Virus record (IMG/VR): IMGVR_UViG_2925891887_000003
DNA length: 55,008 bases
Strand: one strand, 5' to 3'
Source: a virus
Taxonomy: Duplodnaviria; Heunggongvirae; Uroviricota; Caudoviricetes
The notes under the pieces were generated by a model. The model was not told where the DNA came from. It did no database searches and was given only the letters and a program-made list of their open reading frames with translations. Shown piece after piece: positions 2,894-38,188 of this stretch. Numbering within the stretch: position 1 is the stretch's first letter; each line of letters starts with the position of its first letter. The translations under genes were made by a program, and so were the position numbers.

Positions 2894-3287
2894 CACATCA
2901 CCTCCCGGACAGGCAGGCGAGCAGCAAGGCAAAGCACATATTCATGGACCAGTGAAAGACGTGCATGAGACTCATCGCTGGCGACAATACGCAGCATACT
3001 GATACGTGGTTTACGTTCTGCACGACGAACGGCGGCAAAAACAAATATAAATTGAGGATGTGATGGGGTGAGGATCGTAGCCATAAGGGCAATCTCCAAT
3101 AAGTAGCGGTTATTGCCACCACCAGAGCTGCAAATCTCATGGGTGATGGCCCGGACGGGGTTTGCAGTACCGGCCTTATTGGAAACCGGCCAGCCCGAAG
3201 GCTGCCCCGCCCGGACCACCATTATCTGACAGGAGCCACGGTGTAAGCACCACAGCCCGAAAAATAGGTGTGCCTGAGCAACGACAT

Positions 3288-3309
3288 AAAAAAACACGCT
3301 CGACGCGTG
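3288..3309 (-). terminator. intrinsic terminator downstream of the AlpA/Vis-like gene
   Basis: On the minus strand: 5-bp GC stem (CACGC/GCGTG, loop GTCGA) followed by U7 (plus-strand A-run 3288-3294). Confidence 0.45.
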
Positions 3310-3437
3310 CTGTGTCGCCAATAAGTTACACGGGCTGCAAATCCCGGCTGCCGATTTTGCGGCAGCGGAAAAACTATAACTGGAAAGGTTGCCAGGACGC
3401 AAGCCACAAAAAAAGAGATGAGACTGCAAAGCCAGAT

Positions 3438-13615: not shown

Positions 13616-14908
13616 CTATGGTTTTTTATTAGAATCTTCGCCACTAAATAAATTATAATAAATTGATTTTATTAGATATCTGTCAGAATCTATATGGTCA
13701 GCACGAGTAGCATGCTCTAATGTTTCAAATGCTAGGGTTTGTGCGGCTTCAGCAAAAATTCCAGGCCAACCCTTACTCAGCATCGACAGTCCTTTAAGGA
13801 CCCTTATCTGAATTTCCCTCATACTGGCACCATCGCGCGCAACAGGTGAGAAAAAGTCTTCAAGTAGATCGTTATTCTGAAGTGGTGCAACATGTACAGA
13901 AGGATATTTCACTTCTATTTCATCAGATTTATTCTGCGCGTAAGCGGAAAGTATACGTACACCTCTGCCAATGACATCAATGGCGGTTCCAGGATCGTTC
14001 ACTGCGGGGGAAAGGGCTCGGCAGGCTATTTCGGCCATGACGCTAAGACAAAATCGGGGGTCCTGAGCAAATGAACGTACATCCGAGACAATAATCGTCT
14101 CAAGTAAATCGGTGCTGATTGATGACTCCTGGCCCTGACTCAGGTACAAAACTGGCGTGGACGGATGTATGAAACTGCCCGGCTGCGCCACGAGGTATAC
14201 ATGACGGGGATCATTGGTCAGCAGCTTACTGAGTTTCACCATATCAACATATTCAACATAGCCAATCTTTTTCGGATAAACTGCAACCGTTCCTTTCGGC
14301 TGTTCATTGTTCTCAAGCCATGGATATCCGCCGAGACAGGGATTTCTTGCTCTCGCAATAAATGTTTCGATGGCCGCCTGTTCTACTTTTGCCGTTGTCT
14401 CACCAACCCTCCCCAGAGAGGTCAAATGCTGTATCCAGCGAAGCAATGTGATGAGGATTAAGGCAATGACAACCAGTGTTACAATGAATAAAATGACTCT
14501 CCCCCTTTCTCCATAAGCTCCCATATTGAGGGCAATAATCCCTACCAGACTGAAGAGAAAAGAACCGATGAAGGTGGCCAGTACATTTTGTGTGGTGACG
14601 TCTTCAACAACTAAACGAGTAGCTCTGGGAGTCACATTAGTAGTGGCTGAACCGTAGGCTGTGACCATGATGCTCAGCGAAAATGTGGTCACTGCCAGCA
14701 TACTCGATGCCAGTATGTTCAGAATGTTATCGACTGCTTCCGCACCAACCTTCACGGAAACCGACTCAGGTATCATTGATTTAAAAAGAATTGATAAAAG
14801 GGCCGTTATTATTGCGACAATTGCGAATAACGTTGCCCTGAACCATAGTTTTTTAAATGTCTGCTTCAGCATCCATTTCCAGCGTGAAATCATTCTGCAT
14901 TCCCTCAT
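13616..14908 (-). CDS. membrane protein with N-terminal TM helices (DUF2254-like)
   Basis: 430 aa; four hydrophobic segments in the first ~160 aa, then a soluble domain. Family name from recollection only. Confidence 0.55.
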   Translation of the reverse strand: MRECRMISRWKWMLKQTFKKLWFRATLFAIVAIITALLSILFKSMIPESVSVKVGAEAVDNILNILASSMLAVTTFSLSIMVTAYGSATTNVTPRATRLVVEDVTTQNVLATFIGSFLFSLVGIIALNMGAYGERGRVILFIVTLVVIALILITLLRWIQHLTSLGRVGETTAKVEQAAIETFIARARNPCLGGYPWLENNEQPKGTVAVYPKKIGYVEYVDMVKLSKLLTNDPRHVYLVAQPGSFIHPSTPVLYLSQGQESSISTDLLETIIVSDVRSFAQDPRFCLSVMAEIACRALSPAVNDPGTAIDVIGRGVRILSAYAQNKSDEIEVKYPSVHVAPLQNNDLLEDFFSPVARDGASMREIQIRVLKGLSMLSKGWPGIFAEAAQTLAFETLEHATRADHIDSDRYLIKSIYYNLFSGEDSNKKP

Positions 14909-14919
14909 ATTGCAGCCGG

Positions 14920-14949
14920 GATAAATAAATGCCGCCTCTGTGGCGGCAT
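14920..14949 (-). terminator. intrinsic terminator downstream of the BCCT transporter gene
   Basis: Minus strand: 8-bp stem atgccgcc/ggcggcat followed by a U-rich tract. Confidence 0.5.
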
Positions 14950-14956
14950 GTTGCTG

Positions 14957-16960
14957 TTAACGAACCAGATGCAGGAAGTGCAGGTGTTTTTCGTACTGGT
15001 CCAGTATGTCATTAATCAGCTGTTCCTGATTCCAGCCCATTACATCATAATTTTGGCCGCCCTCTTTGAGATAGACTTCAGCGCGATAATATCGATGTTG
15101 TTCACTCTGCTGCTCATCATTATCCAGCGCAGCGAGCGCGAAGGTCGGTGAGTTATACCCGCGAAGCCTCACTTCATATATATAATTCAGCTCGTTGCCC
15201 AAATCGACTTCAAGGCGAATACGATCCTCGGCGGCGTCACTGATGTGGCTTATCGTTCCCTGCTTGTTAAGTTCCTCCTGAACCAGCGTCATGGCGGGTT
15301 GGATAATGTCGTCCATAAAACGTTTCACAAGAGAGCGCTTCGGCAAATACGCGATATTGCGTAACCTTCTCTGCCAGGGAATTGGGTTACGTGCAGCCGT
15401 AGGAGCAATAGTCGCCATGCTAAGGCTTTCACGCTTGGTCAAATCCCGACGCAGGGCTTTTAACAGTCCGTATATGGATATTAATAAGATAACTGAGAAG
15501 GGCAATGCACTCGCTATCGTTACGGTTTGCAACGCACTCAGCCCCCCTGCGATCAGCAGGGCAATAGCAACAACGCCCATGAGCAATGCCCAGAAAATTC
15601 GCTGCCAGACGGGCGTGTTTGCCACCCCACCTGATGCCAGAGTATCCACAACCATTGCCCCCGAATCAGCAGACGTTACAAAGAAGACGATGACCATCGC
15701 CATTGCAATGAATGACAGCACGGAAGAGAACGGGAAATGCTCCAGGAAATTAAACAGGGCAAGCGCAACATCCTGCTGAACGGTATTGGCGAGGTCAGTG
15801 GCGCCCTGGTTCATGATGAGATAGATGGCGCTGTTTCCAAACACCGTCATCCACATGAGCGTAAAGCCGGCGGGAACAAACAACACGCCAGTCACGAACT
15901 CACGAATTGTCCTGCCGCGGGAAACGCGTGCAATGAACATACCTACAAACGGCGACCATGAAAGCCACCATCCCCAGTATAATAATGTCCAGCCCCCCAG
16001 CCAGTTGCTCGACTTGGGTTCATACGCGTAAAGGTTGAACGTTTTACTCACCAGTTCCGACAGATAACCACCCGTATTTTCCACAAATGACTTCAGCAGA
16101 AGCACAGTGGGACCCAGGCACAAGACCAGCGCCAGGAGCAACACCGCCAGGCCCAGATTAAGCTCAGACAGGATGCGTATTCCCTTGTCCAGGCCGGACA
16201 CCACCGAAATCGTCGCTAACCCCGTGATGACCACGATCAAAATGACCTGTACCGTTTCATTGATGGGCACGCCGAAAAGATGGTTCAAACCGGCATTCAC
16301 CTGCAATACACCGTAACCCAGCGATGTTGCAACGCCAAAGACAGTGCCTATCACGGCGAAGATATCAACCGCGTGGCCTATAGGCCCGTAAATGCGATCG
16401 CCGATAATGGGATAGAGCGCAGAACGCAGCGTTAAAGGCAGACCGTGACGGTAACTGAAAAAGGCCAGAATCAGCGCCACGATGGCATAAATTGCCCATG
16501 CGTGCAGACCCCAGTGGAAGAACGTCAGGCGCATGGCTTCCTTCGCTGCCGCAACGGTCTCTGGAGTGCCGACAGGTGGCGAAAGATAATGCATCACAGG
16601 TTCGGCAACGCCAAAGAACATCAGGCCGATCCCCATCCCTGCCGAAAAAAGCATCGCGAACCAGGAGTGGTAGCTGAAATCAGGCTGCGCATGGTCTGGG
16701 CCCAGCTTTATATCACCGTAACGTGAGAGTCCAAGGAACGTGACGCTCAGTAAAATCAGGGCCACAGCAAGTATGTAGAACCAGCTGGCATTCGTGAAGA
16801 TTTGTTGCTGAAGTAGTTTAAAATTTTTGTCGGCGACATCCGGGAATACGGCGGCAAAGGCGACAAGAAGGAAAATTAGCAAAGCAGATGTAAAGAATAC
16901 CGCTTTGTTAACCTGGCTTGTAGACTTCTTTGGGGTTGTATCATTTTCACTCATAATCAT
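14957..16960 (-). CDS. BCCT-family transporter (BetT-like choline/betaine transporter)
   Basis: 667 aa, polytopic; long collinear similarity to E. coli BetT (e.g. SRYGDIKLGP, WTLLYWGWWLSWSPFVGMFIARVSRGRTIREF) plus a C-terminal cytoplasmic extension. Divergent from K-12 betT. Confidence 0.8.
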   Translation of the reverse strand: MIMSENDTTPKKSTSQVNKAVFFTSALLIFLLVAFAAVFPDVADKNFKLLQQQIFTNASWFYILAVALILLSVTFLGLSRYGDIKLGPDHAQPDFSYHSWFAMLFSAGMGIGLMFFGVAEPVMHYLSPPVGTPETVAAAKEAMRLTFFHWGLHAWAIYAIVALILAFFSYRHGLPLTLRSALYPIIGDRIYGPIGHAVDIFAVIGTVFGVATSLGYGVLQVNAGLNHLFGVPINETVQVILIVVITGLATISVVSGLDKGIRILSELNLGLAVLLLALVLCLGPTVLLLKSFVENTGGYLSELVSKTFNLYAYEPKSSNWLGGWTLLYWGWWLSWSPFVGMFIARVSRGRTIREFVTGVLFVPAGFTLMWMTVFGNSAIYLIMNQGATDLANTVQQDVALALFNFLEHFPFSSVLSFIAMAMVIVFFVTSADSGAMVVDTLASGGVANTPVWQRIFWALLMGVVAIALLIAGGLSALQTVTIASALPFSVILLISIYGLLKALRRDLTKRESLSMATIAPTAARNPIPWQRRLRNIAYLPKRSLVKRFMDDIIQPAMTLVQEELNKQGTISHISDAAEDRIRLEVDLGNELNYIYEVRLRGYNSPTFALAALDNDEQQSEQHRYYRAEVYLKEGGQNYDVMGWNQEQLINDILDQYEKHLHFLHLVR

Positions 16961-29240: not shown

Positions 29241-30736
29241 TATGCAGACTCCTCTGAATACTGAAGACGGAACTGGTTAACCACGGCAAAAACACGCAAC
29301 TGGTTAACATAGTCAGGCGGGAACAGCGTGTTCAGGCGGTTCGGATCGCTGGCATCACGCTCCACAACCAGGTACTGCTTAAACAGTTCGTAGTTTTCCA
29401 CGATCCCCGCACGCTCAAGCTGACGGTAGGTTGCCAGCAGTTCCCCTTTGATTACCGCCGGGGTGACAATCGCCTGACCGGGACCAAAGCGGGTACCGTC
29501 GCTGGCAAGCTTGTGACGCCCGTACTTACTGGTAATGACGGATTTCAGTTTGCGCAGTACATACGCACTGGTATGCAGCGTCTCGCTGTCGAGGTAGCTG
29601 TTATCCGCAACCCCGTAAGCATTTTTCCTGTACGTGGTGACATCACGCTGAATGCGCAGCACCCCGCTTTCGACATACGCCGTTGCCACGCCATGAGACA
29701 GCAGGGTCTGCTGCTCGGTCATCGTGAACCGTTTCCCCTTCGGCGCAGGCAGCATACCCACCAGCTCACCGGTCTGCGTGGGACGTGCCGGATCGTTGCG
29801 GATAAACACCGCTGCGCGGGCGGTACGGCTTGCCGCCAGCTCGTCGGCAGGCGTCTGGGTCTCTTTTTCGTACCCCGCCAGGGTGATGTGCTGCTGGTTA
29901 AACTGGTCACCTGCGTTCACCAGTTCTGACAGTGTGCCGGTCTTTGCCGTATACACATGACCATACAGCTGACGCGCATAGCTCCAGCGACCGCTGGTAT
30001 CGTTCATTTCGGTCACCAGCGTGTTAACGGAGGCCGTGTCGTTGAACGGCAGACCGATATAATCAAACGGCTCATCCGCCATTGCAGCCACCGCGCCGGT
30101 GAGAACCGGAGCGCCCGTTCCGGCGGTCCCCGTCGCCACGGCAATCTGTACGCCCGCTGGCAGCACTTCGCCCCCACCGAAGCCGTAGTAATTGAGGCTG
30201 ACAGGAATTTCATTCCCGCAAAGCCCCTTATGACGCGCGGTCAGCGTGACAACACCAGCCGAAGATGAAGCTGTAAACGGCAGAGTCGGAACGGCATTGA
30301 TGGCATCTTTGATACTGCTGGCAATCGTCGTGACGTTATCGCCGTTGGTCACCGAAGCCTGCACGCGGGTACGTCCCACATAGACATTCACCGTGCCGCT
30401 TTCGGTTGCTTCCCCGGTCACCGTCAGCGTAACCGTTGCCGCCGCGCCTGTGGCTTCCGGAACGGCAATCACATACAGCTCACCAAACGGGTCGGTCTGG
30501 CGATAAGCCTCGACCATACGCGCCAGCTGACTTCCCGCACCACAAATCTGGCGTGCATAGTCTGCCGACGGCATCAGCACCAGACTGTTGGCAACAATCT
30601 CTGCACCGTTATTGGCATGACCAATCAGCAGCGATGCTCCGCTGTCCTGTGCAGTATTCGCAGCCTGGTTATCCATTTCCGCATAAAACAGCGGAACCAG
30701 CGTATTCGACGGAATGGTGTTAAAGCTTATCGTCAT
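29240..30736 (-). CDS. contractile tail sheath protein
   Basis: 498 aa; size and position upstream of tube/chaperone/tape measure. Confidence 0.75.
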   Translation of the reverse strand: MTISFNTIPSNTLVPLFYAEMDNQAANTAQDSGASLLIGHANNGAEIVANSLVLMPSADYARQICGAGSQLARMVEAYRQTDPFGELYVIAVPEATGAAATVTLTVTGEATESGTVNVYVGRTRVQASVTNGDNVTTIASSIKDAINAVPTLPFTASSSAGVVTLTARHKGLCGNEIPVSLNYYGFGGGEVLPAGVQIAVATGTAGTGAPVLTGAVAAMADEPFDYIGLPFNDTASVNTLVTEMNDTSGRWSYARQLYGHVYTAKTGTLSELVNAGDQFNQQHITLAGYEKETQTPADELAASRTARAAVFIRNDPARPTQTGELVGMLPAPKGKRFTMTEQQTLLSHGVATAYVESGVLRIQRDVTTYRKNAYGVADNSYLDSETLHTSAYVLRKLKSVITSKYGRHKLASDGTRFGPGQAIVTPAVIKGELLATYRQLERAGIVENYELFKQYLVVERDASDPNRLNTLFPPDYVNQLRVFAVVNQFRLQYSEESA

Positions 30737-30890
30737 CGGTGTTCACCTTTTTATTCACGCGCCGGATATCACCCGCTGCTTCACGGCGCAGCCAGTAGTT
30801 GTTCTCATCAACATTTCGCCCTTCGGCGGGCAAAAGGTCGCCGCGGGCAGGGTCAGGCACTGACCGCCCTTTAACAGGTTTCACAAACAT
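30720..30890 (-). CDS. small hypothetical protein (56 aa) upstream of the sheath gene
   Basis: Not in the ORF track (<60 aa). ATG at 30890; MFVKPVKGRSVPDPARGDLLPAEGRNVDENNYWLRREAAGDIRRVNKKVNTDDKL; fills the sheath-upstream gap and overlaps the sheath start by 17 nt. Confidence 0.35.
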   Translation of the reverse strand: MFVKPVKGRSVPDPARGDLLPAEGRNVDENNYWLRREAAGDIRRVNKKVNTDDDKL

Positions 30891-30898
30891 GATGATCC

Positions 30899-31459
30899 TC
30901 AGGAAGGAAGGGGTATTTCGGTGTGATGTTCGATATCGCCGTCAGGCCCGTTACCGGGATCGAGATAATCAACATCAATCGCCAGCGTTCGCAGTTCATC
31001 CAGACTGTTCAGGTCATCCTGCTGGCGGGTATCGTCTTCGGTCAGCTCGCTGATGACCGAAAAATCGAACTGATAAATCAGCTCATGACGATTCAGATCC
31101 AGCAGCGTGCCGCCGTCATAGGTAATCGGGTTACCGCACGCTTCCGGGTTCCAGCCCAGCAGGGCCTTAAAGAGCATCTGCCGGACATCGTCCACCACAT
31201 CATACGAAGCAAACTGACCGCGCTCATCACGCCCGTTACTCAGTATGACAACCACGGAGAAGCCCTCTTTCAGCTCCTGCCAGTAGTCGGTCTGGCTTTT
31301 GTTTTCTCCCGGAGAGTCATCACCCGGTACCACATACGCCGCCGGGAGTCTCAGCTTTCCGACCTCCGGCAGATTTTTGAACTGTGCCGCGCCTGCCACC
31401 CGGTTTTCAAAATACGGGCAGCGGGCACGCAGCGCAGCAATAACAGGCGTCAGTTTCAT
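30899..31459 (-). CDS. virion structural/morphogenesis protein (Mu gp37-like)
   Basis: 186 aa in the head-tail joining region; positional. Confidence 0.4.
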   Translation of the reverse strand: MKLTPVIAALRARCPYFENRVAGAAQFKNLPEVGKLRLPAAYVVPGDDSPGENKSQTDYWQELKEGFSVVVILSNGRDERGQFASYDVVDDVRQMLFKALLGWNPEACGNPITYDGGTLLDLNRHELIYQFDFSVISELTEDDTRQQDDLNSLDELRTLAIDVDYLDPGNGPDGDIEHHTEIPLPS

Positions 31460-31962
31460 CTGCGTCGTCGCTCCGGCTTCAGTGATTTACGTAATTCCCG
31501 CGCCAGAAAATAGCGTGTCCAGCTGCGGTTCTTTTCAAGAGTTTCCACCATAAAGTTATTACGTGGAGCCAGCCGCCAGCCGCTGCCACCGGATGCACCA
31601 CGATGATGACTACGACGACGTTTTGCTCCTCCCCGGACACCAAAAAACAGAAACGCCGGATAGAAGTCACCAGAGATCATCCGGTTCCCCTTCCCGTTGC
31701 GCTGGTTAGGGGCAATGCGTGTCATAAAACCGGCTCGCTTTTTACTGGCTCTCGGCACCATGTAACCAATCGAACGAGCCAGGCGTCCGGTCTGATAACC
31801 GGGGTTTTCACCCGGTGCCGACCGCGCACGGCGCATCACCAGCCGACGGGCATCACGCATATGACGCTGCCCAATCGTGACAAACGCCCGCCGGACACGG
31901 GCGCGGTTAAAGCGCATCTCCGCGGGCTGCTGAACATCAACGTGAAAAAAGGGAGTCGCCAT
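31456..31962 (-). CDS. virion morphogenesis protein, Arg-rich
   Basis: 168 aa; positional. Confidence 0.35.
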   Translation of the reverse strand: MATPFFHVDVQQPAEMRFNRARVRRAFVTIGQRHMRDARRLVMRRARSAPGENPGYQTGRLARSIGYMVPRASKKRAGFMTRIAPNQRNGKGNRMISGDFYPAFLFFGVRGGAKRRRSHHRGASGGSGWRLAPRNNFMVETLEKNRSWTRYFLARELRKSLKPERRRR

Positions 31963-32347
31963 TGCTGCCTCCGTGACTCTGCGTAAATTCGCCCAGTTCC
32001 GTACACTCCAGCAGCAGAAAGCGCCGCGCCCCGTTCAGATCGCGCTGACGTTTCACCCGGTACACACTGTCATCACAGACCACCTCATAATCAGCAGTGA
32101 TCCCCCGGCGGTAGCGAATGGTGATGTAATGGGTGATGGCATCTCCGGTCTGCGCGGTTTCCTGCCAGGTGGTGGCACTGGTCTGGATAACCTTCGCCCA
32201 TGCCCGGAACGCAACCGGGTATTGAGGCTCCACGCCAAAGTTATCCGCGGGCATATCCACCCGCTGGCGGATCAGGACGCGTTTATTCAGTTCGCCGGGA
32301 TCCGGCAGAATGTAGGTTGCGCTGGTCTGCGCCTGACGAATTTTCAT
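31937..32347 (-). CDS. head closure / head-tail adaptor protein
   Basis: 136 aa downstream of the capsid and connector genes. Confidence 0.4.
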   Translation of the reverse strand: MKIRQAQTSATYILPDPGELNKRVLIRQRVDMPADNFGVEPQYPVAFRAWAKVIQTSATTWQETAQTGDAITHYITIRYRRGITADYEVVCDDSVYRVKRQRDLNGARRFLLLECTELGEFTQSHGGSNGDSLFSR

Positions 32348-32667
32348 AGTGGTATAAGGCGATAAGGAGCAACCAACCAGTTAAAACTCATTGGCAACTC
32401 CATTTTCTCAACGTCTGTAACCGTTGAGCGGTTTTCGTAGAAATGGCTGACAAGTAGCAGGAGCGCCAGCTTCACATCATCAGATATCACAAGCCCATCA
32501 GGATCATCCGCAGGCCTGTCATCTGCGGTTGCATACAACGTACGGTTAAGGAAGTTTTCCGTCCGACTCTGAGCGGCCTTCCCAAGTAGTTCAAGCAACT
32601 CATCTTCATCAGAGAAATCATCATCCAGACGAAGCTGAAGCTTAATCTCTTCCATTTTTAACAGCAT
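32344..32667 (-). CDS. head-tail connector (gp6-like) protein
   Basis: ORF 32344..32712; internal ATG (MLLKMEEIKL...) preferred; acidic small protein right after the major capsid gene. Confidence 0.4.
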   Translation of the reverse strand: MLLKMEEIKLQLRLDDDFSDEDELLELLGKAAQSRTENFLNRTLYATADDRPADDPDGLVISDDVKLALLLLVSHFYENRSTVTDVEKMELPMSFNWLVAPYRLIPL

Positions 32668-32745
32668 AAAACCTCCTGTGCCCGCCAGAACGCAGGCACA
32701 AAAAAACCGCATTACGCGGCGTGCTGTATTACGTAAAAAGACTAA

Positions 32746-33975
32746 TCAACCACCAACGCTACCTTTCCCCACCAGCGCTTTAATGGCAGAGGTGTCTTCC
32801 AGGATACAGTCAAAACGATGGAAGGCCAGAAAACCGGTCTGATCATATTCCGCGTAACGCTCAACCAGACGTTTAAGAATCATGTATCGCACACGACGGA
32901 TAATGAAGCGATCAAAGTCACCACAGAACATGAATTTTTTACCCGCCCCGATATCATCAATTTCCTGATCAATGACATACGGTACATTCAACACTGAAGC
33001 AGGTGCCACACCAACAATATCCGGCAACCATAAAGGGCGTCCCTGACCGTCTTCCATCTCACTGATCAGTTTCAGCGTATTATCGTTAAACGCCAGGCGG
33101 AATTTCGGTCCGCGACGATATGCAGGATCAATGCTGTGTTTCAGAGCCAGAATTTCCTGCCACTTCACCGCATTTGCCGCGGCAGTCTGTGTTGTGCCGG
33201 TCACTGATGCTGCCAGCCCTTTGGGTTGTTTAGGCGTACCAGCACCAGTCCCCTGAATCAGATAACGGGCTTCACCACGACCAATACGTTCAGCAATGCG
33301 ACGGGCAAGATAAGCTTCCATATCGATCGCGCTGTCCTGCAGCAACTCATTAGACACACGAATGATTTTCGATGTCATTTTGAGCGCCCCAAGGCTTCCC
33401 ATACCGAAATCGGTGTCTTCTTCACCGGCTTCTTCATTTTCGCCCAGCAGAACACCAACTTCGGAAGTACCATCAGCTGTTGCCCACTCCATAGTGCGAC
33501 CGTCAGAAGTGGTCAGAATCTGCGCCACACTGGCGATACCACCGTAGGATTTCATCTTCTCAACAACTTTCGCCAGGAATGTTTCTGGTACGGTATATCC
33601 GCCCTTTTCATCCTGAGCTACCCCCTGGGCACGAAGTTCACGCAACGCCTTTCGTTCTTCTGATGTCAGCTCACTGGCACCGTGACGCATCCACTTATCA
33701 AAAACCTGAGCTCGTTTCTCATCCTGTTGTGGATTGTTTTCCGGATCAAGATTCTGACGCTGCTCTTCCTCATTGCTTTCAATGTACGCCTGATCCTGAC
33801 GACGCAGTTCTTCTTCGCGTGCAATTCGTTCATCAAGCGCTTCCAGTTCGGATTTTGCTTTGTTCCACTCAGTGCGCTGCTCTTCCGTCCATGCGTTATC
33901 ACCAATTTTTTCATTCAGGGCGCGCATGTCAGTTGCGATAGTATTACGTTTCTGTTTCAGTTCATGCAGTTTCAT
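32746..33975 (-). CDS. HK97-family major capsid protein (with N-terminal coiled-coil/delta domain)
   Basis: 409 aa; charged coiled-coil N-terminus then capsid core; preceded by protease and portal genes in the canonical order. Confidence 0.85.
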   Translation of the reverse strand: MKLHELKQKRNTIATDMRALNEKIGDNAWTEEQRTEWNKAKSELEALDERIAREEELRRQDQAYIESNEEEQRQNLDPENNPQQDEKRAQVFDKWMRHGASELTSEERKALRELRAQGVAQDEKGGYTVPETFLAKVVEKMKSYGGIASVAQILTTSDGRTMEWATADGTSEVGVLLGENEEAGEEDTDFGMGSLGALKMTSKIIRVSNELLQDSAIDMEAYLARRIAERIGRGEARYLIQGTGAGTPKQPKGLAASVTGTTQTAAANAVKWQEILALKHSIDPAYRRGPKFRLAFNDNTLKLISEMEDGQGRPLWLPDIVGVAPASVLNVPYVIDQEIDDIGAGKKFMFCGDFDRFIIRRVRYMILKRLVERYAEYDQTGFLAFHRFDCILEDTSAIKALVGKGSVGG

Positions 33976-33985
33976 GATGTTTCCT

Positions 33986-34588
33986 TTACGCGTTAAGAAG
34001 GGTCAGGACGCGTTCACGCGCCATACGTTGATTAATGGCTTTCTGTAGCGCGCCGCTGTTGCGCGCCTCCTGCCATGCTTTCATGGAGCGAACAGCCGAG
34101 TCAGCCTCCTGATAGGCAGGATATGTCACAGGACTGACATCCAGCAGACGGGAAAAGCGGGTTATCTCGCGAATAACAACCCCATCCTCATCCTGATACC
34201 ACTCCTCACCGTCACGGGCGACACGGAAAGCGAAAGATGACTGGTTAATATCTCCACGTTGCATCGGGGCCAGCACCAGATCACGAATGGTCTGTGTCTC
34301 CGGAGCCTGGATGTCATAGCGTAATCCGCGCTCATCAACTGAAAGATTCAGCGTGCCTGCTGCACTACGCCCAAGAATAAAATTAGGATCGTGGTTAAAC
34401 AGTGCGCGTACATCATCACCAAGCACATCGTCAAAAGCGCCGGGCCGGATGATTTCGCGGAATGAACCGAATATCAGCTCAGAACGACAGTCAAACACCG
34501 ATCCATAACCGATAATGTGCGCCGGGTTATCGTCATGCCTCTCAGCACGCACCTCACCGCTGTAACAACGGATTTCACGGTCATTCAT
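33986..34588 (-). CDS. HK97-family prohead protease
   Basis: ~200 aa between the portal and capsid genes. Confidence 0.75.
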   Translation of the reverse strand: MNDREIRCYSGEVRAERHDDNPAHIIGYGSVFDCRSELIFGSFREIIRPGAFDDVLGDDVRALFNHDPNFILGRSAAGTLNLSVDERGLRYDIQAPETQTIRDLVLAPMQRGDINQSSFAFRVARDGEEWYQDEDGVVIREITRFSRLLDVSPVTYPAYQEADSAVRSMKAWQEARNSGALQKAINQRMARERVLTLLNA

Positions 34589-35807
34589 TGGTTTTTCCCT
34601 CATCGTTTTTTGGGGGCTTAAAATCTCCTGCCGGGTTAGCAGCGTTCACGCTTACCAGCATCTCATCCAGCCCTTCAACCGGATTCATATCCTCGAATGC
34701 GCGGGCCTCATTACGGCTCATCCATCCATCGGTAATAGCGAAGTGATAGAATTGCGCGCGCTCCTGCGGAGTTCCGCGTAAAAGCCCCGTCAGATTGAAC
34801 CTGACGTAATACCCGGCGGCTAACTCAGCGCGGGTAAACAAGCGACGGTTAAGCTCCTGCTCCCAGTTCATCACCCACGGCATCATCGTGTAGCGGACAA
34901 ACTGAATCGCCTGCGCAGAAATATTGGAGAAGGTGGCTTTTTCGAGGTCATTAATCATGTGCGCAGGAATATTGAAAATACCGGCAATCATTGAACGGTT
35001 CAGTTTCATCATGTCAATGATCTGAGCGTCAACTGGCGACACAGTCAGTGCCTTGTAATCCAGATCGGCTGGCAGCAGCATGGTTTTGTTTTCCTGGCTG
35101 CGTAACGCCTGCGATGCCTTCTGCCACTGATCTTTAAGCCAGCCCCAGCTGTCCTTATTGAGTCCGCTTTTAACGGATACTATCCCCGCCGGACGGGCAT
35201 TACCGCTGAAGAAGCTTTCTGTGTATTTCTGACCGCTCATCCCCATGCCTATTGTTTCGGCATGTTGCATAATCGGACTCAGCCCCATCTTCTGATTATT
35301 ACCCAGCGCTCGGATGTGGATCATATCGTCGGGGCTGATCGCAAACGCCCCATATTCGTTGTACAAACCGTAGGTGTATCGGCCACCAGTATTCATCAGC
35401 GTCGTTTCCCACGGCATACAGCAATCCAGGGATATGACTTCACCGCGACGATTACGTTTCACCCAGGTATACCCATTCCCCCAGCCAAGGATGTGACGTT
35501 GCTTCAGTTCGCGCCATTTGTAACTGGTTTGCCAGGTATTGGGCTCATCATGAACCAGATAAAACGCCGGATGATCGCGTGCGGGCTCAACCTTCCCATT
35601 GTGCCTGCGCATAACATGCAACGGCATCTGGGCAAGGCTGGAAGACAGGACATAGATACAGGAATACACCGCAGCCAGTTTCATCGCAGTTTCAGGACTG
35701 ACATAAACGTCTGCCCGTAACAGCCCATCAGTATCAACGGCATCCCCGGTTATCGGGGTGGAAGGATTCTCCAGTGATTTACTTCTGAACAGAGCATCAA
35801 GCAGCAC
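34581..35807 (-). CDS. HK97-family portal protein
   Basis: 408 aa; directly downstream of the terminase large subunit gene. Confidence 0.85.
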   Translation of the reverse strand: MLLDALFRSKSLENPSTPITGDAVDTDGLLRADVYVSPETAMKLAAVYSCIYVLSSSLAQMPLHVMRRHNGKVEPARDHPAFYLVHDEPNTWQTSYKWRELKQRHILGWGNGYTWVKRNRRGEVISLDCCMPWETTLMNTGGRYTYGLYNEYGAFAISPDDMIHIRALGNNQKMGLSPIMQHAETIGMGMSGQKYTESFFSGNARPAGIVSVKSGLNKDSWGWLKDQWQKASQALRSQENKTMLLPADLDYKALTVSPVDAQIIDMMKLNRSMIAGIFNIPAHMINDLEKATFSNISAQAIQFVRYTMMPWVMNWEQELNRRLFTRAELAAGYYVRFNLTGLLRGTPQERAQFYHFAITDGWMSRNEARAFEDMNPVEGLDEMLVSVNAANPAGDFKPPKNDEGKTNE

Positions 35808-35958
35808 GCGTCCCCCTTCTGGCCATAGCCAGTGCGCCCACCAGCAGTAAACCGCCGGACAGCATCAGAGCCGGAGCCATACCAAACTGCAGGTAAAACC
35901 CGCACGTAAGCAGGCCAAAACCAGCCAGCCCGATAACATCAGCAATTAGTGATTTCAT
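35797..35958 (-). CDS. small hydrophobic protein (53 aa) between the terminase and portal genes
   Basis: Not in the ORF track. ATG overlaps the terminase stop (ATGA); [53 protein letters not shown], one or two predicted TM helices. Confidence 0.35.
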
Positions 35959-37688
35959 AGAATTAAGAGATCATCGTCCGGATCAAGAGATGAAAGGAAA
36001 TCGTCGGGTTCTTTGAGCATTGCCCGACCGATCGCCATAATCAGTGCAACCGCACCATCGATTTTGTTTTCCGCCTGCTCCTTGACAGGCTTCACCACAT
36101 CATCGTTACCCGGAATGGTTTTGCCGACCACGTTGCCGATACACCAGGTCATGATGGGATTGCCGTCATGATGAAAGCGCCACGATTCAATCGCCGCTTC
36201 CAGCTCTTTCATCGGATCGGACATGTTGGTGTAGTTCTGAATGATGGTGATGGGGTTCAGGTCTTCATCAGCAAGGTCATGCGACAGCCCGGTCGCCCCG
36301 AAGGGGTCGATGGGTGACTCACTGACCGGGCTGATTTTGTTCGCCGCTTTGGCCTCCTCGAGGATGTAGCGATAATCCACCTCCGCACCAGCGGTAACAG
36401 TCAGAACGCCCATTTCCACCCATTTCTGAAAGCGTTCGGCTGTCCGGCGATCTTCATTTTTCTCGACGCTGTACACCGTGTCATACGGTACCCAGAAACG
36501 CGGGGCTACACTGTAGTAATGCGTTTTACCGTCAATCTCGCGGGTATAAAGTCGCGCCATGCTGTTCATATCCAGCTTACGCGCCAGGTCAAAGGCCAGA
36601 ATGCACGGCTGCCCCTCGAACTGCTCAAGGGTCAGTGATTTATCCTCGCAGCTCTGCCAGCTCACCAGGTTGAAATACGCCGAACGCGCCGACACCCAGA
36701 TATTGAGGTGTTTTGTTTTAAAGACGTTTGCCAGACGGGCGTTATTTTTCGCACGCTGCTGCTGACTTAACAAAAATTCGCGATAAACCGACACGCCAAT
36801 ATTTGGATTGGCTTTTTCCAGCACCTGCGGGTCGGTCCAGTCGTCTCCTTCATCAACGGTATAGATGATCCCGAACAGTTCATCGTTAGGCACCGAGCCG
36901 TTGAGCATCTCGATGACTTCCCGCCGCTTGTCGTAGCACGGCCCCTCAATGTTGTACCCGGCGGTGGTGATGGCCCACATCAGTGGCTGACGTCGCGCCC
37001 CCATCCCGGTAAGCATTGTGGTATAAAGCGCATCGGTGGCATGCTCGTGATATTCATCAACCACGGCACAGTGGGGTGATGAACCATCACCGGGGTTGCC
37101 GATCAGCGGTTCAAACCGCGCGCCATCCTCCGGACGGTTCATGTTTGAGGCGTTAACCTCAATCCCGAACGCTTCCGTCAGCATGGGTGTGCGTTTACAC
37201 ATCAGTCGCGCCGGGCGAAAGACTTCCCACGCCTGTTTCTCTGTCGTGGCACCGGAATACACTTCCGCGCCAAACTCGTTATCACAGGCAAAACAATACA
37301 GGGCAACACCGGCAGAGATTGCCGATTTGCCGTTCTTACGGGGGATTTCGGTATACACCTCCCTGAAGCGGCGCAGCCGGGAGCCTTTATTGACCCAGCC
37401 AAACGCACAGCAGATCACAAAGAGCTGCCACGGCTCCAGCGTGATGGGCATCCGTTTGAATGCCCACTCACCCTTGGTGTGCGGCAACAGCTGAATAAAT
37501 TTCGCGGCCCGTTCAGCCAGGTCCTTGTCGAAGCGGTAACGAAACGACTTACTTTTTTCCGCCATCAGGTCATCAAGATGGCGCTGGCAGGCCTGAATCA
37601 CAAACTGGCAGGCCACAATCTTTCCGCGCACGACATCACGGGCATACTGATTGGCTGCATTTACATTGGGGTAAGATTTCCGGCTCAT
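35955..37688 (-). CDS. terminase large subunit
   Basis: 577 aa; ATPase/nuclease architecture; flanked by the terminase small subunit and portal genes. Confidence 0.9.
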
Positions 37689-38188
37689 GATTCGATAATT
37701 TTCAGAAACGGGTTAGTGGCTTTCTTCTGCCCCGCCAGGCCAATCAGACGCTGGCGGCTGCTGGGGTCGAGTCCGAGCATTGCCCCCGTGCTGCTCATCT
37801 CGGACTCCTGTTCTTTCTTGGCGGTCAGCTCCGGATTTTTGACCATACCGCCCATTGCACCGGTGATGGTGTTGCCCTGGCTGGCAATATTTTTCACGGC
37901 ACGTCGCCAGAACTCATAGGCCACACACCACCGCTCAAGCACCGCGAGGTCAGTCACGCACAGCAGGCCCTGACCGCAGAGTTCTTTGGTTGTCAGTTGC
38001 CACATGATCGTGGCGAGAGGGAGATCTTCTTCAGCGAACCACTCCGGTGGCTCAACACCTTTGATGGGCGTAAAAACAGGTTCATCTTTGTTCAGGGCTC
38101 GCTTGCCGGGGTTTCCGGCCAGCGCCTTGCGCGCCGTTGGCTTGGGGCGACGCCCGGAACGCCCCGCCGTTCCAGCCATATGCGGCAC
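37685..38188 (-). CDS. terminase small subunit (P27-family-like)
   Basis: 167 aa, GTG start (alternative ATG at 38179); N-terminal [14 protein letters not shown]... typical of this family. Confidence 0.75.

Follow-up and report, generated by a model that had tools for sequence, protein, structure and literature searches.

In phage lambda, the small gene W lies between the genes for the large terminase and the portal, and its product, gpW, is a soluble head-completion protein. In phage T4, gp40 is a small membrane-bound factor that helps to start prohead assembly on the gp20 portal at the inner membrane. Tail genes of phage Mu follow the order gp37-gp38-gp39, and phage SfV likewise has tail terminator, orf10, and sheath in a row. 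Near-atomic cryo-electron microscopy (cryo-EM) of whole Mu modeled the terminator-tail region with gp37, gp39, and gp40 only, with a gp37 hexamer capping both the tube and the sheath; the authors were unable to resolve gp38, yet they list it among the "probably structural proteins" (PMC11915804). Here, we describe two small open reading frames (ORFs) in IMG/VR record IMGVR_UViG_2925891887_000003, a Caudoviricetes sequence whose full length of 55,008 nucleotides (nt) we call the window. ORF1, of 56 amino acids (aa), is followed by the tail sheath gene, and ORF2, of 53 aa, lies between the genes for the terminase large subunit (TerL) and the portal. We are nearly certain that both are real protein-coding genes, of the DUF2635/Mu gp38 family and of a family of hydrophobic hairpins, respectively. 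The best overall explanation, to which we give a probability of about 0.6, is that both are genuine late genes with the accessory roles that we propose below.

A first-pass annotation, made from the sequence of the window alone, had picked out these two short genes, which its ORF-length cut-off had hidden, and it was right to do so. We found the 56-aa frame upstream of the sheath gene and the 53-aa hydrophobic frame (grand average of hydropathy [GRAVY], 1.13) between terminase and portal, both on the minus strand. The same annotation called them unannotated, which holds for its own ORF track and not for RefSeq, where the NCBI Prokaryotic Genome Annotation Pipeline (PGAP) lists ORF1 as WP_000497751.1, "DUF2635 domain-containing protein," and ORF2 as WP_000838374.1, "hypothetical protein." Each exact protein sequence is present on at least 1000 public contigs. 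A 601-bp segment spanning ORF1 was found in 1076 of 5426 Escherichia coli RefSeq genomes, and 255 contained the whole of the 601-bp segment spanning ORF2. As sequences and as families, the two genes were known before. That they are real small phage genes, as the first-pass annotation had held, was borne out by full-length family matches, by frames that are kept in diverged relatives, and by ratios of nonsynonymous to synonymous substitution rates (dN/dS) of 0.2 to 0.3.

ORF1 is a plain member of the family of Mu gp38 and SfV orf10, and nothing of substance sets it apart from them. It matched Pfam DUF2635 (PF10948) with an E value of 9.8e-17 and 60.9 bits, against a gathering cut-off of 26.6, and the alignment placed residues 3-47 on profile positions 1-45 of 46. 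It also matched phrog_208 (E 3.6e-26). The protein is 100% identical to the SfV orf10 product and to the homologues of SfI, SfII, and SfIV, and it shares 42% identity with Mu gp38 over 52 residues. A search for homologues found 125, and all 120 among the matches listed carry the DUF2635 name or Pfam domain. In an alignment of 36 sequences, 15 residues were invariant, all of them in a 41-residue core, and the C-terminal tail was charged and variable. For the core, dN/dS was ~0.21, and the third codon position was the most variable. AlphaFold2 modeled ORF1 as a small alpha/beta domain with a predicted local distance difference test (pLDDT) score of 84, rising above 90 for residues 1-40. No PDB chain matched it by sequence, and no solved or viral predicted structure gave a significant match.

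We used TerL alone as the query and fetched 80 loci of other species, 79 of which were analysable for the ORF2 slot. DUF2635 was found in 20 of the 21 TerL-selected loci that have a Mu-type sheath and tail terminator, always between those two genes, and in none of the sheath-less loci of this set. In one locus (L010, ~14781-15843), an insertion of ~1 kb separates the tail terminator from the DUF2635 gene, which still lies directly 5' of the sheath gene. Thus, DUF2635 is tied to the sheath and not to the terminator. In most relatives, the ORF1-type gene overlaps the sheath gene (-17 to -1 nt). At its other end, the ORF1 ATG lies 8 nt past the tail-terminator stop codon (30899-30901), with which its Shine-Dalgarno (SD)-like GAGGA overlaps. 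The first-pass annotation had described overlapping stop and start codons with the neighbors for both ORFs; this is correct for three of the four junctions and fails at this one, where a spacer and an SD take the place of an overlap.

No clear SD precedes ORF2. Its start codon overlaps the TerL stop and its end overlaps the portal start (Table 1), and the 11-nt overlap with the portal gene recurs in most SfV-type loci. The match to phrog_7105 (E 9.2e-22) is full length, with residues 1-52 on profile positions 1-52 of 52. An AlphaFold2 model gave a hairpin of two helices, residues 2-25 and 27-52, with a pLDDT of 89. This fits a build that we call YmfR-like, after the K-12 protein discussed below: two apolar helices of ~20 residues in a protein of 50-76 aa, with basic residues past helix 2. 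There was no Pfam match to ORF2 at E values up to 1, neither Pfam nor NCBIfam offers a model for ORF2 or YmfR, and there was only one chance match (0.26) when PDB sequences were searched with ORF2. Of 20 close homologues that we aligned, 19 share the length of 53 aa, and a profile run against 1.84 billion representative proteins returned 122 clusters, mostly of 47-70 aa. Identities of these hydrophobic proteins from tblastn are partial, as each query was aligned only in part, perhaps through the BLAST low-complexity filter.

Conservation of the frames in related prophages was the check that the first-pass annotation had suggested, and for ORF2 we ran it on the 79 loci, which span 67-99% TerL identity and represent Enterobacterales, Aeromonadaceae, Pseudomonas, Burkholderiales, and other groups. 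We observed an ORF of 49-76 aa encoding a hydrophobic hairpin directly after TerL in 64 of them. We take this as the unbiased figure, since a count of loci in which the annotated frame is open would be circular, the sequences having been picked as ORFs. Relative to the end of the TerL stop, the start of the hairpin ORF ranges from 25 nt before to 13 nt after, with 3 nt before as the most common distance. Hidden Markov models (HMMs) of both hairpin types, SfV and YmfR, gave 68 matches, all in the TerL-portal slot and none elsewhere in these loci. We found dN/dS values of ~0.30 for SfV-type ORF2 (21 unique sequences) and ~0.28 for the YmfR type (24), which are rough because dS is saturated (~1.3-1.6). 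The third codon position was the most variable in ORF2-type frames. Hairpin identity tracked that of the portal (Spearman 0.56) and of the TerL C-terminal tail (0.48) more than that of the TerL core (0.30), and all 21 SfV-type portals have an SfV-type hairpin. Thus, the inheritance of the hairpin gene follows that of the portal and the TerL C-terminal tail.

Within E. coli, ORF2 and ymfR are alternative alleles of one slot. Among E. coli genomes with this TerL, most are similar to the window up to ~26 codons before the TerL stop, past which they carry a different portal and ymfR. Comparison with three loci (L002-L004) placed a mosaic breakpoint in the 3' end of the TerL gene, at about window position 36033 (TerL residue ~566). 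On its upstream side, TerL identity is 95-99% in ~1100 additional E. coli genomes; on its downstream side, the C-tail of TerL, the hairpin gene (replaced by the ymfR type), and the portal (~28% identity) are swapped together. We therefore rejected the idea, read from low query coverage (255 of 1374 E. coli genomes), that ORF2 is absent from the remainder, which really carry the ymfR-type allele and a different portal. The K-12 prophage e14 retains ymfR along with fragments of TerL and portal. Its YmfR is a 60-aa protein of two-helix build that matches phrog_502 (E 2.5e-28).

YmfR-type proteins resemble ORF2 in their position between TerL and portal, their length of 50-60 aa, their two apolar helices, and the basic residues past helix 2. 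They differ from it in sequence (only ~27% identity) and in their PHROG (502 versus 7105). A spacer of 12 nt separates ymfR from TerL, and the gene is preceded by an SD of its own, in contrast to the ATGA overlap of ORF2. The two types are associated with different portal clades. PHROG cross-matches between the two are weak (E 1e-4 for ORF2 against phrog_502 and 0.022 for YmfR against phrog_7105). HHalign joined an alignment of the SfV type to one of the YmfR/Burkholderiales type with 94.8% probability and an E value of 5e-8 over 48 columns, figures that apolar-helix composition may inflate. These profile comparisons suggest that the SfV-type and YmfR-type hairpins probably form one superfamily and that ORF2 is probably a distant homologue of YmfR.

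Both genes belong to a late operon on the minus strand at window 28.5-38.5 kb. The window DNA is an SfV-like prophage with an HK97-type head and a Mu-type contractile tail; compared with Mu, it joins the Mu-type tail module to an HK97-type head and not to a Mu head. The operon runs from the terminase small subunit (TerS) through TerL, ORF2, portal, HK97-type protease, and major capsid protein to adaptor, head-closure, and neck/tail-completion genes and then to tail terminator, ORF1, sheath, and tube. A scan for promoter consensus sequences, which was our only promoter check, found no sigma-70-like site beside ORF1 or ORF2, and regional counts were at or below chance. No convincing terminator flanks either gene, and a weak hairpin within ORF2 is at chance level (12 found versus 10.6 expected). 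The GC content of the two ORFs (0.54-0.56) is like that of the flanking genes (0.52-0.58). PADLOC defense models gave no match at E values up to 1 for ORF1, ORF2, or YmfR. We considered a moron architecture for both ORFs, that is, an own promoter and terminator and an odd composition, and rejected it because these signals are missing and GC matches that of the neighbors. The lack of own promoter and terminator, the neighbor-like GC, and the stop/start overlaps argue that ORF1 and ORF2 are integral genes of the late operon.

Table 1. Positions in the window of ORF1, ORF2, their junctions, and the neighboring genes
Feature	Position	Strand	Basis
ORF2, 53 aa, ATG start, two-helix hydrophobic hairpin, PHROG 7105	35797-35958	-	phrog_7105 E 9.2e-22; PGAP
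TerL stop/ORF2 start overlap, ATGA	35955-35958	-	sequence
ORF2 end/portal GTG overlap, 11 nt	35797-35807	-	coordinates
ORF2 helix 1, residues 2-25, predicted transmembrane	35884-35955	-	hydropathy, residues 3-19; AlphaFold2
ORF2 helix 2, residues 27-52, predicted transmembrane, then basic tail ARRGTRAA	35803-35880	-	hydropathy, residues 25-47; AlphaFold2
ORF1, 56 aa, ATG start, DUF2635/Mu gp38 family	30720-30890	-	PF10948 60.9 bits; phrog_208; PGAP
ORF1 conserved core, residues 1-41, MFVKPxxGRSVPDPARGDLLPxEGRNVxxxxYWLRRxxxGD	30768-30890	-	36-sequence alignment
SD-like GAGGA, 5 nt 5' of ORF1 ATG	30896-30900	-	read from sequence
ORF1 end/sheath ATG overlap, 17 nt (translational coupling)	30720-30736	-	coordinates
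TerS	37685-38188	-	operon gene order
TerL, upstream neighbor of ORF2	35955-37688	-	PF03354 and PF20441; PGAP
Portal, downstream neighbor of ORF2, GTG start	34581-35807	-	PF04860 E 4.7e-98; PGAP
Tail terminator (Mu gp37/K type), upstream neighbor of ORF1	30899-31459	-	PF23840 E 2e-26; PGAP product name
Tail sheath (Mu gpL type), downstream neighbor of ORF1, ATG at 30736	29240-30736	-	PF04984, PF17482, PF17481; PGAP

We propose an accessory role for each gene. The ORF1 protein consists of a conserved soluble domain of ~40 residues and a variable charged tail. Its translation starts from an SD of its own and is coupled to that of the sheath gene, and the gene is inherited strictly with the Mu-type pair of tail terminator and sheath. 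We tentatively suggest that it acts as a nonstructural or substoichiometric accessory at sheath polymerization or termination and that it is not a separate sheath cap; the synteny, the coupling, and the negative cryo-EM result for Mu gp38 favor this role. ORF2 would be made by termination-reinitiation coupling between TerL and the portal and hence late, together with the packaging and portal proteins. It is predicted to insert in the inner membrane, and its basic C-tail and the positive-inside rule would put both termini, with that tail, in the cytoplasm. It may be matched to the type of portal and dispensable for some portal lineages. One possibility, which we put forward with caution, is that ORF2 is an inner-membrane accessory for membrane-associated portal or prohead assembly or for DNA packaging. 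T4 gp40 would be a precedent for this role only, and we claim no similarity in sequence, size, or gene position. HK97-type heads are not known to need initiation at the membrane.

A protein of similar build is found in the same slot of a Gram-positive phage. The head module of Streptococcus thermophilus phage Sfi21 is collinear and HK97-like (TerS, TerL, small gene, portal, protease, major capsid protein). Its small gene in the TerL-portal slot, orf59c, encodes 59 aa with two hydrophobic segments and matches DUF1056 (PF06341) at an E value of 7e-10; homologues of orf59c were found in 237 phage records. DUF1056 gave no match to ORF2 at E values up to 1 and none to YmfR-type and other slot proteins at E values up to 10. 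Thus, orf59c and DUF1056 are analogues of ORF2 in position and build only. A wider form of the proposal for ORF2 is speculative: the ORF2/YmfR-type hairpin would be an uncharacterized accessory of HK97/P27-type head-packaging modules. As a small inner-membrane protein, translated along with TerL and portal and inherited together with the portal and the portal-binding TerL tail, it would connect the packaging motor or the initiation of the portal/prohead to the membrane, and DUF1056 would be its functional counterpart in Gram-positive Sfi21-like phages.

Several observations weigh against our overall reading. We found no functional study of DUF2635, YmfR, or DUF1056 in a search of the literature. 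For ORF1, one sheath-bearing locus has no gp38 homologue (Serratia microhaemolytica, L021, 15132-15917); its slot holds an unrelated 197-aa ORF that looks KilA-N-like when judged by eye. A gp38 that cryo-EM leaves unresolved is still compatible with a disordered or low-copy virion protein, and in the curated GenBank entry for Mu, gp38 bears the name "putative sheath terminator protein." For ORF2, 15 of the 79 loci (including L028, L030, L034, and L036) have no hairpin gene, and there the portal directly follows TerL. One cluster of portals with at least 45% identity is mixed, with a Pseudomonas-type hairpin in 5 loci and none in 7. The hairpin gene has therefore been gained or lost within one portal lineage, and it is not universally required, because the loci without it include portals akin to hairpin-bearing ones. 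Co-variation with the portal could stem from mere linkage and the recombination breakpoint in the 3' end of the TerL gene, and saturation of dS makes the dN/dS values rough indicators. In Shigella flexneri CP182557.1, a ymfR-type gene (L022, 9746-9961) is frameshifted after ~27 codons and would give an aberrant 71-aa product. A second ymfR-type copy in the same genome (L053) is intact, and the frameshift is probably due to prophage decay.

The rival explanations concern both the reality of the genes and what they do. That one or both ORFs are untranslated chance frames in short spacers is scarcely credible. Both are indeed shorter than 60 aa and ORF2 has no clear SD, but the profile matches are full length, the 53-aa length is conserved, and the hairpin HMMs find nothing outside the slot. 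Moreover, the frames stay open across 30-50% amino acid divergence, with dN/dS of 0.2 to 0.3 and the third codon position the most variable. It is unlikely that ORF1 and the gp38 family are a structural sheath terminator or a neck component of the virion. In favor of it, the name given to gp38 in the Mu record says so, ORF1 is flanked by the genes for the tail terminator and the sheath and is coupled to the second of these, and the core is very strongly conserved. Furthermore, gp38 is still among the probable structural proteins for the authors of the Mu structure, in which only gp37, gp39, and gp40 were modeled at the terminator-tail region (PMC11915804). We prefer a nonstructural or substoichiometric accessory of the sheath for the reasons given above.

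For ORF2, the rival to be taken most seriously is that it has no part in head assembly and occupies the TerL-portal gap only as a passenger. It would then be a late-expressed membrane effector, for example a superinfection-exclusion protein blocking the entry of DNA or an antiholin- or holin-like modulator of lysis timing. ORF2 is small and has two transmembrane segments, small-residue motifs, and a basic C-tail, a build common to many exclusion proteins and holins. PHROGs files phrog_502, which is related to ORF2, under "moron, auxiliary metabolic gene and host takeover," and the absence of the hairpin from 15 of 79 related modules and its variability in one portal cluster are as expected of an accessory gene. 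However, ORF2 lacks a promoter and terminator of its own, its codons overlap both neighbors, its GC matches theirs, and PADLOC did not recognize it. No holin family matches ORF2, and YmfR-type proteins reach noise level only (PF07332, best E 0.12). In addition, locus L001, which shows no difference from the window in the stretches compared, has a complete cassette of holin, endolysin, and lysis protein upstream of the terminase genes. Confinement of the hairpin family to this slot, together with the similarly built protein that Gram-positive Sfi21-like phages encode at this position, would be an unusual constancy for a moron. A late effector is somewhat doubtful, only slightly more so than the role that we propose. 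A lambda gpW-like head-tail joining (head completion) protein is very improbable, even though ORF2 occupies the position of lambda W. Phage records label the slot gene variously as "membrane protein," "putative integral membrane protein," "head-tail joining protein W," "head-tail connector protein," and "capsid and scaffold protein." The last three labels would favor a gpW-like protein, but they look like guesses from position, unsupported by sequence, and the first says otherwise. ORF2, with its high GRAVY and its two apolar helices of ~20 residues, is strongly hydrophobic, unlike soluble gpW; the absence of any Pfam match means that there is no match to the gpW family; and the module already encodes adaptor, head-closure, neck/tail-completion, and tail terminator proteins. 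We retain, tentatively, an inner-membrane accessory of the portal, prohead, or packaging machinery as the role of ORF2.

The small gene also bears on the annotation of SfV itself. The SfV reference records U82619.2 and NC_003444.1 do not annotate ORF2, yet the gene is intact there, with 94% identity (NC_003444.1, 2289-2450). Both records start the portal gene (orf3) at an upstream GTG (2392 in NC_003444.1), which lies within the small gene. The corresponding codon of the window is GCG, so the longer portal start is unusable there, and this favors the downstream portal start and the reality of the small gene. The longer upstream start in SfV is probably wrong.

Other features of the window were noted in passing. 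Two terminator-like hairpins with T-runs lie at 32672-32720 on the minus strand, directly 3' of the major capsid gene, and match an SfV annotation of a "putative rho-independent terminator." They would lie inside the following gene if it were read from its longest ORF (32344-32712, 122 aa); PGAP gives this gene a later start (107 aa). The later start is more likely because the hairpins are inside the 122-aa version. Near one end of the window, at 3139-3379 on the minus strand, Rfam matches above the gathering score were found for C4 antisense RNA (86 bits), isrK (73 bits), and the c4 a1/b1 target (50 bits), which we take to be a C4/ant immunity element of the P1/P7 type. A tRNA-Thr gene (anticodon CGT) lies at 53565-53640 on the minus strand. 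SfV-family phages integrate at thrW, and this tRNA gene may mark the attachment site and one end of the prophage.

Public annotation already holds both genes, and the practical use of these results lies in the omission of the 53-aa gene from the SfV reference and its probably too-far-upstream portal start, and in the exposure of contradictory, position-based names for the slot gene. A two-helix hairpin gene occupies the TerL-portal slot in about four-fifths of related modules, across Gammaproteobacteria and Betaproteobacteria. With its K-12 relative YmfR and its Gram-positive look-alike DUF1056, this family is a modest lead. If the hairpin does link head assembly or packaging to the membrane, it would be a new component of a well-studied assembly pathway, and ymfR of E. 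coli K-12 would be the relic of a morphogenetic gene.

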